Source: Escherichia coli
GTDB taxonomy: Bacteria; Pseudomonadota; Gammaproteobacteria; Enterobacterales; Enterobacteriaceae
Length of the DNA stretch: 64,000 nucleotides
Reading direction: 5' to 3' (one strand)
Assembly: GCF_002854065.1 (NCBI RefSeq)
Contig: NZ_CP024147.1
A program made the position numbers and the translations under genes. Positions 3,360-7,570 of the stretch are shown here, in pieces. The stretch's first letter is position 1. The number at the start of each line of letters is the position of its first letter. The notes below the pieces were generated by a model. That model did no database searches. It was given only the letters and a program-made list of their open reading frames with translations, and was not told the DNA's origin.

Positions 3360-3368
3360 AACCGTTAG
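3360..3368. repeat. IS1 target-site duplication (left copy, AACCGTTAG)
   Basis: A 9-bp direct repeat AACCGTTAG immediately flanks both IS1 ends (3360..3368 and 4137..4145). Confidence 0.85.
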
Positions 3369-3423
3369 GGTGATGCTGCCAACTTACTGATTTAGTGTAT
3401 GATGGTGTTTTTGAGGTGCTCCA

Positions 3424-3699
3424 GTGGCTTCTGTTTCTATCAGCTGTCCCTCCTGTTCAGCTACTGACGGGGTGGTGCGTAACGGCAAAAGCACTGCCGG
3501 ACATCAGCGCTATCTCTGCTCTCACTGCCGTAAAACATGGCAACTGCAGTTCACTTACACCGCTTCTCAACCCGGTACGCACCAGAAAATCATTGATATG
3601 GCCATGAATGGCGTTGGATGCCGGGCAACCGCCCGCATTATGGGCGTTGGCCTCAACACGATTTTCCGCCATTTAAAAAACTCAGGCCGCAGTCGGTAA
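3424..3699 (+). CDS. insA: IS1 InsA (transposition inhibitor / N-terminal part of InsAB')
   Basis: 91-aa [46 protein letters not shown]... matches canonical IS1 InsA. Confidence 0.95.
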
Positions 3700-4121
3700 C
3701 CTCGCGCATACAGCCGGGCAGTGACGTCATCGTCTGCGCGGAAATGGACGAACAGTGGGGATACGTCGGGGCTAAATCGAGCCAGCGCTGGCTGTTTTAC
3801 GCGTATGACAGGCTCCGGAAGACGGTTGTTGCGCACGTATTCGGTGAACGCACTATGGCGACGCTGGGGCGTCTTATGAGCCTGCTGTCACCCTTTGACG
3901 TGGTGATATGGATGACGGATGGCTGGCCGCTGTATGAATCCCGCCTGAAGGGAAAGCTGCACGTAATCAGCAAGCGATATACGCAGCGAATTGAGCGGCA
4001 TAACCTGAATCTGAGGCAGCACCTGGCACGGCTGGGACGGAAGTCGCTGTCGTTCTCAAAATCGGTGGAGCTGCATGACAAAGTCATCGGGCATTATCTG
4101 AACATAAAACACTATCAATAA
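3618..4121 (+). CDS. insB: IS1 InsB reading frame (expressed as InsAB' transposase by -1 frameshift)
   Basis: 167-aa frame ...[64 protein letters not shown]... matches IS1 InsB; it overlaps the insA 3' end in the -1 frame. Confidence 0.9.
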
Positions 4122-4136
4122 GTTGGAGTCATTACC

Positions 4137-4145
4137 AACCGTTAG
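4137..4145. repeat. IS1 target-site duplication (right copy, AACCGTTAG)
   Basis: Identical 9 bp to 3360..3368. Confidence 0.85.
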
Positions 4146-4922
4146 AAGCAAAACCGCTGGCTGCCGCGTCAAAACCCGTTTTACCACTGGCAATTAAATA
4201 CAGCAGCGCCGCTGCAACAATACCGCCGACAACCTGGGCAATTACGTAGCCAACGACTTCTTTTGCCGGAAAACGTCCGCCAGCCCATAAACCAATAGTG
4301 ACCGCCGGGTTAAAATGACCACCAGAAATATGACCAACAGCGAAGGCCATCGTCAGAACGGTCAAACCGAATGCCAGCGCCACGCCGGCAAAACCAATGC
4401 CTAATTCCGGGAAGCCTGCGGCCAGTACAGCACTACCACAGCCACCAAAAACAAGCCAGAAAGTACCAAAACATTCAGCTGCTAATTTTCTGAACATATC
4501 CACCTCAATTAAAAATTGACCCTGTGAAAAATATGGTCGTTTTATAGGGTCGTCGTAAAAAAGTGACGACGGAAATAATGCGCGGCTATTTTAAAAACGA
4601 AGGCGAGTCATTCACCAGATAAATAAATCCAGTAAATTTGATTTAGGGCAACAGCGGGTTGCCCCATATAGTCATTTGTCTGATTGACAGTGTAGTGCAA
4701 GCAAAAGATTTAATCCTTTAGGCGTAATAAAAAATAATTTATCATGCTAATTATTTGATTTTGTTGTTTTTGCAGACTTATCAGCAAGAGGGAGTATAAC
4801 GCGATTATTCGCTCATTTTTCAGACATTTGCCATGCTTAAATGTGATGTCATCACGTATTAGCAAGGCCTTTCCCGTTATACTGCCAGCGTAAAGGATAA
4901 GTCACATATTTCTGGAGGGGAT

Positions 4923-6581
4923 ATGATTCTTGAGCGCGTTGAAATTGTGGGTTTTCGCGGTATCAACCGTTTGTCGTTGATGCTGGAACAAAACAACGTC
5001 CTGATTGGGGAGAACGCGTGGGGTAAATCCAGCTTGCTGGACGCCTTAACCCTGCTGCTATCGCCAGAATCAGATCTCTACCATTTTGAGCGCGACGATT
5101 TCTGGTTCCCGCCGGGAGATATCAACGGGCGAGAACATCATCTGCATATTATTTTGACCTTCCGCGAATCGCTGCCAGGCCGACATCGGGTACGCCGTTA
5201 TCGGCCGCTGGAAGCGTGCTGGACGCCATGCACCGATGGCTATCACCGTATTTTTTATCGTCTGGAAGGGGAGAGTGCGGAAGACGGCAGCGTGATGACA
5301 CTGCGCAGTTTTCTCGATAAAGACGGACATCCGATTGATGTTGAGGATATTAACGATCAGGCACGCCATCTGGTGCGTTTAATGCCGGTGCTGCGCTTGC
5401 GTGATGCCCGTTTTATGCGCCGTATTCGTAACGGCACGGTGCCAAATGTCCCCAATGTGGAAGTCACCGCGCGCCAGCTCGATTTCCTCGCCCGTGAGTT
5501 GTCCTCACATCCGCAAAATCTCTCTGATGGACAGATTCGTCAGGGACTTTCCGCAATGGTACAGCTGCTTGAGCATTATTTCTCTGAGCAGGGGGCCGGA
5601 CAGGCGCGATATCGTTTAATGCGGCGGCGAGCCAGCAATGAGCAACGAAGCTGGCGCTATCTGGATATCATCAACCGGATGATTGACCGACCTGGAGGGC
5701 GCTCGTATCGGGTTATTTTGCTCGGCCTGTTTGCTACTTTATTGCAGGCAAAAGGCACATTGCGACTGGATAAAGACGCCCGTCCATTGTTGCTGATCGA
5801 AGATCCAGAAACCCGTTTACACCCCATTATGCTTTCAGTTGCCTGGCATCTGTTGAATCTTTTGCCTTTACAACGTATTGCTACCACCAACTCTGGCGAG
5901 CTGCTTTCGTTAACTCCAGTGGAACATGTTTGCCGCCTGGTGCGTGAATCTTCTCGTGTTGCCGCCTGGCGTCTGGGGCCAAGTGGCTTGAGCACCGAAG
6001 ACAGCCGCCGCATCTCTTTTCACATTCGTTTTAATCGTCCGTCATCGCTGTTTGCTCGCTGCTGGTTGCTGGTGGAAGGGGAAACGGAAACCTGGGTTAT
6101 CAATGAACTGGCGCGTCAGTGCGGACATCATTTTGATGCCGAAGGGATCAAGGTCATTGAGTTTGCCCAGTCCGGGCTAAAGCCACTGGTTAAATTTGCC
6201 CGGCGAATGGGGATTGAATGGCATGTACTGGTCGATGGCGATGAAGCAGGGAAGAAATATGCCGCTACGGTACGCAGCCTGTTGAATAATGATCGGGAAG
6301 CCGAACGAGAACATTTAACGGCGTTACCGGCGCTGGATATGGAACATTTTATGTATCGCCAGGGATTTTCCGATGTGTTCCACCGCGTGGCGCAAATCCC
6401 GGAAAATGTACCGATGAATCTGCGCAAAATTATCTCGAAAGCGATCCATCGCTCTTCCAAACCCGATCTTGCCATTGAAGTGGCAATGGAGGCCGGACGT
6501 CGTGGTGTGGACTCCGTACCGACGCTGCTGAAAAAAATGTTCTCACGCGTGCTGTGGCTGGCGCGCGGTCGCGCGGATTAA
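4923..6581 (+). CDS. ybjD: OLD-family ATP-dependent endonuclease homolog (ABC-type ATPase N-domain plus TOPRIM C-domain)
   Basis: 552-aa ORF; Walker A GENAWGKSS, Walker B-like LLLIEDPE, C-terminal TOPRIM motifs LLVEGETE and HVLVDGDEAG; matches YbjD by recall. Confidence 0.85.
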   Translation: MILERVEIVGFRGINRLSLMLEQNNVLIGENAWGKSSLLDALTLLLSPESDLYHFERDDFWFPPGDINGREHHLHIILTFRESLPGRHRVRRYRPLEACWTPCTDGYHRIFYRLEGESAEDGSVMTLRSFLDKDGHPIDVEDINDQARHLVRLMPVLRLRDARFMRRIRNGTVPNVPNVEVTARQLDFLARELSSHPQNLSDGQIRQGLSAMVQLLEHYFSEQGAGQARYRLMRRRASNEQRSWRYLDIINRMIDRPGGRSYRVILLGLFATLLQAKGTLRLDKDARPLLLIEDPETRLHPIMLSVAWHLLNLLPLQRIATTNSGELLSLTPVEHVCRLVRESSRVAAWRLGPSGLSTEDSRRISFHIRFNRPSSLFARCWLLVEGETETWVINELARQCGHHFDAEGIKVIEFAQSGLKPLVKFARRMGIEWHVLVDGDEAGKKYAATVRSLLNNDREAEREHLTALPALDMEHFMYRQGFSDVFHRVAQIPENVPMNLRKIISKAIHRSSKPDLAIEVAMEAGRRGVDSVPTLLKKMFSRVLWLARGRAD

Positions 6582-7570
6582 CCGCGAAACATCGTGGCCA
6601 TTTGTGGCTGAATAGCGTCGAGCATCTCATAGCGCCGACGGTATTCAGCCCGTTTTTTACTGGCGATTTCGGCAATCTCTTTTCGTGCTATCTGTGCTGG
6701 AAGGCGGTAATGGCGTTCAGCATCACATACGCCGCCAACCGATTCCCAGAAAGCGTTGTAATCGGCATGGATCTTGCCTTCTTTATCGCGATAACGCAGG
6801 CTGCGGTAAATATGCGTTTCATTGCTGACGGCAATAATCTGCTCTACCTGCAAACGTTGGGCAAACAGACAGGCCGCTTCCATCACGAGGCGTTTGGGAA
6901 ATAGCCCGTGGCAGGCTTTCGTCGCATTCTGGATTTCCTGATGTGGAATTTCCCATTTTGCGCCTTGCAGTCCACCAATAAACATCGTTCTTTTCCCCTG
7001 ATATTCACACAGGGTAAACGTGATTTCTGCCAGAGGAATACCTTCGCTGTTGCGGAACAGGATTGTGCTGTCACCTTCTTTATCCATTGAGATCATCATG
7101 GTCAGCTCAAGCGTGAACTGCTCGCCGTTTTTGCCTTCCAACTTCGCCAGTTGCAGCCCGGGGGTATTCAAATATAAGCTGAATTCTTCCGCCGACATAC
7201 ACCCGCGGAGTAACGCATAATGGTAACGTAACGCCTCCAGCAATTGCTTACGGCTAAGATTCGCCGCAAGGTAAGGGCGATGCAGACGTACAGGCAGTCG
7301 CGGCTGGCGCGTTAACAATACATTGAGATTAGGCCAGTGGGAAAGTTCGTTCATCCACTCAACGCTTAAACGCGGCATAATCAACGAGCGCAGCAAAAAT
7401 TTCTGGCGAAAACTACGGCGATGCCAGAATTTACCCGGCCGACACTGTCCACGTGCCAGACTAAGAAAAAGTGACAGGCTGCTGAGAGATTCAGATGGCG
7501 TAAAGGTCCGTTCAGTTAGCTGCGACATATTCATGAAATCAATGGTTATACATGACGTCGATTTCACCAT
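6578..7570 (-). CDS. ybjX: VirK/DUF535-family protein YbjX
   Basis: 330-aa minus-strand ORF, convergent with ybjD and overlapping its stop by 4 bp; the sequence matches YbjX by recall. Confidence 0.8.
   Translation of the reverse strand: MVKSTSCITIDFMNMSQLTERTFTPSESLSSLSLFLSLARGQCRPGKFWHRRSFRQKFLLRSLIMPRLSVEWMNELSHWPNLNVLLTRQPRLPVRLHRPYLAANLSRKQLLEALRYHYALLRGCMSAEEFSLYLNTPGLQLAKLEGKNGEQFTLELTMMISMDKEGDSTILFRNSEGIPLAEITFTLCEYQGKRTMFIGGLQGAKWEIPHQEIQNATKACHGLFPKRLVMEAACLFAQRLQVEQIIAVSNETHIYRSLRYRDKEGKIHADYNAFWESVGGVCDAERHYRLPAQIARKEIAEIASKKRAEYRRRYEMLDAIQPQMATMFRG

Follow-up and report, generated by a model that had tools for sequence, protein, structure and literature searches.

The founding member of the OLD family of ATPase-Toprim proteins is the Old protein of phage P2, which is lethal to recBC cells and cleaves tRNA. 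Class 1 has its structural archetype in the OLD protein of Thermus scotoductus (Ts OLD, PDB 6P74), whose ATPase contains a dimerisation domain and is abolished by the mutation H310A (PMC7049728). Class 2 includes Burkholderia pseudomallei OLD (Bp OLD, PDB 6NK8) and GajA, the Gabija protein of Bacillus cereus, which is restrained by ATP (as cited in the available part of PMC13261556). The Class 3 OLD protein of retron Eco8 acts with a reverse transcriptase and msDNA, and in the Class 4 system PARIS the two domains are split over AriA and AriB. The OLD protein of Vibrio cholerae (Vc OLD) is a nickase in vitro, its cleavage is unaffected by ATP, and it falls in clades V and VI, which differ from those of the previously described Class 1, 2 and 4 proteins (PMC12392090). 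Finally, the archaeal OLD-family ATPase Cran1 takes part in cell-cycle progression (likewise cited in the available part of PMC13261556).

The Escherichia coli gene ybjD already belongs to this literature. In the accessible portion of a 2019 paper (PMC6755086), YbjD is the query by which Class 1 OLD proteins were defined. The accessible portion of a 2026 paper (PMC13261556) names the gene oldB and the protein OldB, assigns it to Class 1 and places it between aqpZ and a convergent ybjX. A first-pass annotation of the window (the whole stretch of 64,000 nucleotides analysed here) had described ybjD as a solitary OLD nuclease gene. This identification is correct and already known: it dates from 2019, and experimental tests followed in 2026. 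Published accounts cover the gene, the OLD architecture, the solitary setting next to convergent ybjX and a first set of phenotypes. No publications on DUF2813 or b0876 were found beyond those cited here.

The annotation also called the chromosomal function of ybjD poorly defined, which now holds only in part because the 2026 paper gives phenotypes. According to the available text of that paper, ybjD is transcribed, non-essential and independent of RecBC, and all of the reported phenotypes were obtained in vivo. Over-expression lowers the plaquing of a few phages and then becomes toxic; at non-toxic inducer levels, Bas18 and Bas20 plaque less well and Bas64-68 form smaller plaques. Toxicity increases with the Walker A mutation K35A, which preserves the anti-phage phenotype; neither the Toprim domain nor its acidic residues are needed for that phenotype. 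A chromosomal knockout shows no change across 68 BASEL phages, and expression of YbjD leaves recBC(ts) cells alive, unlike that of P2 Old. Beyond the available text of the 2019 and 2026 papers, the present analysis adds the near-universal presence of ybjD in E. coli, its synteny, its slow evolution with the Toprim domain most constrained, an apparently Class 2-like C-terminus and the dispensability of ybjX.

The ybjD locus and its surroundings

The features of the locus are as follows.

3369..4136, insAB on the + strand: IS1, 768 bp, inside aqpZ, with 23-nt inverted repeats; RefSeq has an IS1B transposase between two aquaporin pseudogene pieces
4498..4922, unstranded: spacer of 425 bp, AT-rich, that separates ybjD from divergent aqpZ, from the sequence and the RefSeq aqpZ start; GC 0.38-0.43
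4878..4883, + strand: TATACT, candidate -10 of a promoter dedicated to ybjD, 39 nt upstream of the start codon; invariant in an 11-genus upstream alignment
4914..4918, + strand: Shine-Dalgarno GGAGG of ybjD; GGAGG or GGGGG in 11 genera
4923..6581, + strand: ybjD coding sequence, an ATG ORF of 552 codons plus TAA; solitary OLD-family ATPase-Toprim, RefSeq "ybjD: ATP-dependent endonuclease"
6578..6581, unstranded: palindrome TTAA common to both stops (ybjD TAA 6579-6581 on +, ybjX TAA 6580-6578 on -)
6578..7570, - strand: ybjX, VirK/DUF535 family; longest ORF 330 aa, or 318 aa from the RefSeq start at 7534

The ORF list agrees with the first-pass positions of ybjD (4923-6581, + strand) and of ybjX, convergent on the - strand, and the YbjD protein of the window matches the dominant E. 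coli cluster (5302 members) at 100% identity. The assignment of ybjX to the VirK/DUF535 family was confirmed by Pfam (DUF535, E 3.2e-102, residues 48-325 against positions 2-280 of the 281-position profile). The proposed overlap of the two genes is real and consists of four bases, with no sense codons shared.

The statement that ybjD stands alone also held, as no helicase neighbour was found at 80 Enterobacterales loci or in nine contexts of distant homologues. No conserved partner of any kind lies beside ybjD in these 80 loci and nine contexts, and its neighbours give no hint of a repair pathway. Gene order across the 80 loci is lysO-(aqpZ)-ybjD-(ybjX)-macAB, with aqpZ and ybjX each absent from some. 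In ten of them (L018, L021, L026, L030, L032, L034, L044, L050, L051 and L061) no ybjX stands between ybjD and macA; these loci include Klebsiella, Raoultella, Trabulsiella and Superficieibacter, and in all ten YbjD is still 80-85% identical. Across genera, YbjX identity is 46-76% where that of YbjD is 79-91%, and at the genus level ybjX has a dN 4-6 times as high as the genes around it. The nine distant DUF2813 contexts contain no DUF535 neighbour. A partnership with ybjX was rejected because genera without ybjX retain ybjD and because ybjX evolves 4-6 times faster; ybjX is a dispensable, fast-evolving neighbour of ybjD and not its partner.

Upstream, the IS1 is flanked by a 9-bp target duplication, AACCGTTAG, at 3360-3368 and 4137-4145. 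Among 5426 genomes, the IS1-aqpZ junction occurs only in CUWW06, to which the window is 99.9% identical. The element had been placed only 425 bp upstream of ybjD, which is wrong: the right end of IS1 lies 786 bp from the ybjD ATG, and 425 bp is the length of the aqpZ-ybjD intergenic spacer. The further suggestion that IS1 could perturb ybjD expression is unsupported. Because the element is nearly twice as far away as claimed and the conserved candidate -10 and the Shine-Dalgarno sequence are untouched, an effect on expression is pure speculation.

The TATACT hexamer is a candidate -10 element of ybjD, a function that its conservation suggests. A sigma-70 consensus scan upstream of ybjD found no full -35/-10 promoter, and TATACT came from conservation instead. 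LexA boxes occurred 20 times against 19.3 expected, with none in 4498-4922, giving no sign of SOS control. PhoP boxes (KGTTTA-N5-KGTTTA, at most two mismatches) numbered 16 against 14.5 expected, with none upstream of ybjD; the sole nearby match, 7367-7383, lies within the ybjX coding sequence and not in a promoter position. Rfam at a permissive threshold gave no match between 4300 and 7800.

Domain architecture and family placement of YbjD

YbjD is an OLD-family ATPase-Toprim protein. In Pfam, DUF2813 covers residues 1-375 (E 2e-160), OLD-like_TOPRIM covers residues 376-440 (E 4e-16), and AAA_15, AAA_21 and SMC_N match the N-terminus. Among PADLOC profiles, those of GajA match YbjD at E-values down to 7e-80 and that of Old at 2e-24. 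The proposed profile search thus assigns the C-terminal domain to OLD-like_TOPRIM, and YbjD as a whole is matched by the profiles of both GajA and Old. The AriA profile of PARIS matches residues 1-51 only. The YbjD family profile retrieved Ts OLD (6p74) at 2e-21 and GajA at 1e-19. The proposed structural comparison had a similar outcome, the best Foldseek matches of the predicted fold (pLDDT 88.8) in the PDB being GajA, Ts OLD and retron Eco8 OLD (E about 1e-19 to 1e-12).

The four motifs named by the first-pass annotation are found at residues 29-37 (GENAWGKSS), 289-296 (LLLIEDPE), 382-389 (LLVEGETE) and 435-443 (VLVDGDEAG). Together with the regions around them, they map to the gene as follows.

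5007..5033, + strand: Walker A / P-loop GENAWGKSS, residues 29-37, with Lys35; from motif position and family alignment
5451..5753, + strand: helical insert in the ATPase domain, residues ~177-277; AF2 model; corresponds to the dimerisation domain of Ts OLD
5787..5825, + strand: Walker B and D-loop LLLIEDPETRLHP; Glu293 = Ts OLD E276, His300 = Ts OLD H283, by profile alignment to 6p74
5883..5894, + strand: H-loop position TTNS; Asn323 in place of the H-loop His (Ts OLD H310), by profile alignment to 6p74 and GajA
6054..6332, + strand: Toprim domain, residues ~378-470; metal-A E385, D438, D440 and metal-B E389, by Pfam OLD-like_TOPRIM and alignment
6333..6578, + strand: C-terminal helical region, residues 471-552; metal-B D472, E474 and invariant Lys513-Pro514

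Conservation was assessed in a family alignment of 63 YbjD homologues at 28-54% identity. In the ATPase, position 35 is Lys in 56 of the 63 sequences and Arg in six, with G29, E30 and G34 invariant or nearly so; E293 is Glu in 57 and H300 is His in 62. The H-loop column is variable (Asn 37, Gln 10, His 10, Tyr 5), and the Q-loop position is not conserved. In the AF2 model, four helices (177-195, 202-221, 241-255 and 259-277) lie between the two ATPase halves, and this insert probably serves dimerisation.

The Toprim half is more uniform. E385, E389, D440 and E474 are invariant, and D438 and D472 are Asp in 62 of 63 sequences. Both outcomes that the first-pass annotation named as refuting it, a C-terminal domain outside the TOPRIM/OLD family and catalytic residues without conservation, are thus contradicted by the data. 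As judged from these residues, the nuclease site is intact, with predicted metal A bound by E385/D438/D440 and predicted metal B by E389/D472/E474. The metal-B pattern parallels E402, D541 and E543 of P2 Old, a putative equivalence drawn from spacing and conservation. YbjD has an invariant Gly481, and an invariant Lys513 stands further along, in a longer helical tail.

YbjD therefore combines the Walker A Lys and Walker B acid, the Toprim Glu and DxD, the metal-B site and the OLD-like fold by which OLD proteins are recognised. Its context is that of Class 1: the gene is solitary, with no UvrD/PcrA/Rep-like helicase, retron or AriB-type partner. The H-loop His of the Class 1 structural definition (Ts H310, P2 H332) is absent, and YbjD has Asn323. 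This is no bar to Class 1 membership, because an Asn variant is reported to be common in Class 1 homologues (PMC7049728). The tandem GajB helicase of Class 2/Gabija is missing, a helicase flanking ybjD at no locus examined. The C-terminal region appears to resemble Class 2 OLD more closely than Class 1. The likening of the architecture to P2 Old and GajA is borne out by the profile matches, but that to PARIS is not, as AriA and AriB are separate proteins and YbjD carries both domains on one 552-aa ORF.

Conservation and candidate roles

The core position claimed for ybjD was upheld, the gene being present as a single copy at one locus in 5424 of 5426 complete E. coli genomes. Its synteny is kept across Enterobacterales, from Escherichia to Serratia and Hafnia; the Salmonella and Citrobacter orthologues are 90% identical and each 552 aa long, and the full-length 552-aa ORF is retained in dozens of genera. 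Compared with C. werkmanii, the dN of ybjD (0.056) is close to that of lysO (0.082), aqpZ (0.053) and macB (0.063), which means that the gene evolves at the rate of its housekeeping neighbours. Over 11 species its dN/dS is 0.015-0.09, a rough range because dS is saturated past E. albertii. The dN of residues 378-552 is about half that of residues 1-377, so the Toprim half is under the tightest constraint. The gene is inherited vertically at one chromosomal site, and the strong purifying selection on it peaks in the half that encodes the Toprim and C-terminal regions.

None of 50,697 phage records contained a YbjD-type gene; the matches to YbjD among them were P2 old (28% identity), a weak 26% match in a 9-kb fecal phage contig that lacks annotation and a 2-kb fragment, likewise unannotated. 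Plasmid matches of at least 99% identity were megabase or mis-binned chromosomal records. The patchy distribution, association with islands or mobile elements and quick turnover of mobile defence genes are not seen for ybjD. In K-12 NCM3722, an IS1 lies within ybjD, which makes this widely used strain a natural ybjD mutant. NCM3722 is viable, so a housekeeping role, if there is one, can be done without under laboratory conditions, and a ybjD knockout is not known to have a phenotype.

These features suggest a model in which an ABC-type ATPase head with a helical insert is fused to a Toprim two-metal nuclease and followed by C-terminal helices. The head, with Asn323 in place of the H-loop His and an unconserved Q-loop, would act as a switch set by nucleotide binding and not as a fast motor. 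ATP-bound YbjD would be held in check; on release, the dimer would engage nucleic acid, which the Toprim site would nick or cleave. We regard this ATP-restrained nuclease model as somewhat probable.

The purpose of such a nuclease can be read in several ways. YbjD may be a dedicated single-gene anti-phage nuclease of Class 1, like P2 Old and Vc OLD, which senses infection and nicks or degrades phage or host nucleic acid, its core position being incidental. Every characterised bacterial or phage OLD protein is a defence factor (PMC12392090 and the available text of PMC13261556), the strongest profile matches of YbjD are defence-system models, GajA and retron Eco8 OLD head the list of its structural matches, and induced ybjD affects Bas18, Bas20 and Bas64-68 as described above. 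Core conservation is itself compatible with an immune function, as conserved core genes can be immune genes. However, in the same 2026 text the chromosomal knockout is without effect on the 68 BASEL phages, recBC(ts) cells survive, and the phenotype does not require the Toprim domain or its acidic residues, although constraint on the gene is tightest there. A fixed, syntenic gene that evolves at a housekeeping rate and is absent from phages is also unlike patchy, fast-turnover defence genes, and dedicated defence seems to us a real but rather doubtful possibility. The alternative is a primarily non-defence role in conserved cellular nucleic-acid surveillance or processing, with phage interference secondary. 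Because the Toprim half is best conserved yet unneeded for the plasmid-driven anti-phage effect, and because the gene behaves like a housekeeping gene, a cellular role is the more likely, although we place it only near, and slightly under, an even balance. The only phenotypes reported in the available 2026 text are anti-phage ones, which speaks against a cellular role, albeit they are weak and depend on over-expression.

Two further readings concern the state and the setting of the gene. The shared TTAA leaves no room for terminators between ybjD and ybjX, the pair is among 165 convergent excludons listed from E. coli RNA-seq (PMC12288877), and ybjD rises by 1.3 log-units alongside arn genes in a UPEC strain under cathelicidin (PMC6737244). 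The two genes might thus form a functional unit, either because their products work together or because an excludon switch, in which expression of one gene excludes that of the other, controls the nuclease. A protein partnership is largely refuted by the genera without ybjX, and the lower identity and higher dN of YbjX and the distant homologues without a DUF535 neighbour tell the same way; transcriptional interference is possible in E. coli but is not conserved across the family, and the two-gene unit as a whole is improbable. Decay was considered as well, for example of a Gabija locus left without its GajB helicase and functionless today: the best PADLOC matches are GajA profiles, and the NCM3722 lineage carries its IS1 inactivation without obvious harm. 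A relic would not be expected to keep its candidate -10 and its Shine-Dalgarno sequence, to be transcribed (available text of PMC13261556) or to remain full-length in so many genera, and any loss of a helicase is older than Enterobacterales, ybjD having been under selection ever since. The pseudogene or relic reading was rejected on the low dN/dS and on catalytic residues that stay invariant or nearly so among homologues at 28-54% identity, and it is the least credible of all.

The cellular reading can be extended to the whole DUF2813 clade. Tentatively, and with less assurance than for the cellular role itself, we propose that this clade is a domesticated, vertically inherited OLD branch, solitary like Class 1 and built like Class 2 (Toprim plus an invariant-Lys helical domain), which would perform an ATP-gated Toprim task on nucleic acid in Enterobacterales and many other bacteria. 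It would not be primarily immune, and the anti-phage effect would be a by-product of the ATPase/dimerisation half. The published phenotype is independent of the Toprim nuclease, yet the nuclease half and its metal ligands are nearly fixed across the order. Following up this contrast could reveal a cellular, non-phage role in part of the OLD family, as for its archaeal relative, and would give a function to one of the remaining uncharacterised genes of E. coli.

YbjD beside characterised OLD proteins

Ts OLD is like YbjD in being solitary and in carrying an ATPase with a helical insert followed by a Toprim domain. Its Walker residues K34 and E276 and D-loop H283 align with K35, E293 and H300 of YbjD, and its metal ligands E377, D431, D433, D381 and E480 align with E385, D438, D440, E389 and E474. 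The two proteins differ at the H-loop, where Ts OLD has His310 and YbjD has Asn323, and at the C-terminus. Ts OLD has no C-terminal helical domain, and it uses Arg487, seven residues past the metal-B Glu, where YbjD has Gly481, with Lys513 in the tail. Class 2 proteins (Bp OLD and GajA) have a Toprim followed by a helical domain with a conserved Lys, K562 in Bp OLD (PMC7049728 and the available part of PMC6755086). GajA gives the best full-length Foldseek matches of YbjD, but sequence identity to Bp OLD and GajA is only 13-21%, and YbjD and nine distant homologues are without an adjacent helicase.

P2 Old is solitary like ybjD and matches YbjD residues 252-440 at 28% identity by tblastn. It requires its H-loop His332 (PMC7049728), whereas YbjD has no H-loop His; it is phage-borne and lethal to recBC cells, whereas YbjD is chromosomal and does not kill recBC(ts) cells. 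Vc OLD shares with YbjD a bacterial host, a solitary gene and independence from RecBCD. It provides strong defence at native level and has a dedicated phage inhibitor (PMC12392090), whereas the effect of YbjD is seen on over-expression; its defence requires the ATP-binding residues, whereas the YbjD phenotype survives K35A. Neither the split domains of PARIS nor the reverse transcriptase and msDNA of retron Eco8 are found at ybjD. Cran1, for its part, offers a precedent for a cellular, non-defence role, and it is essential and archaeal, whereas YbjD is non-essential.

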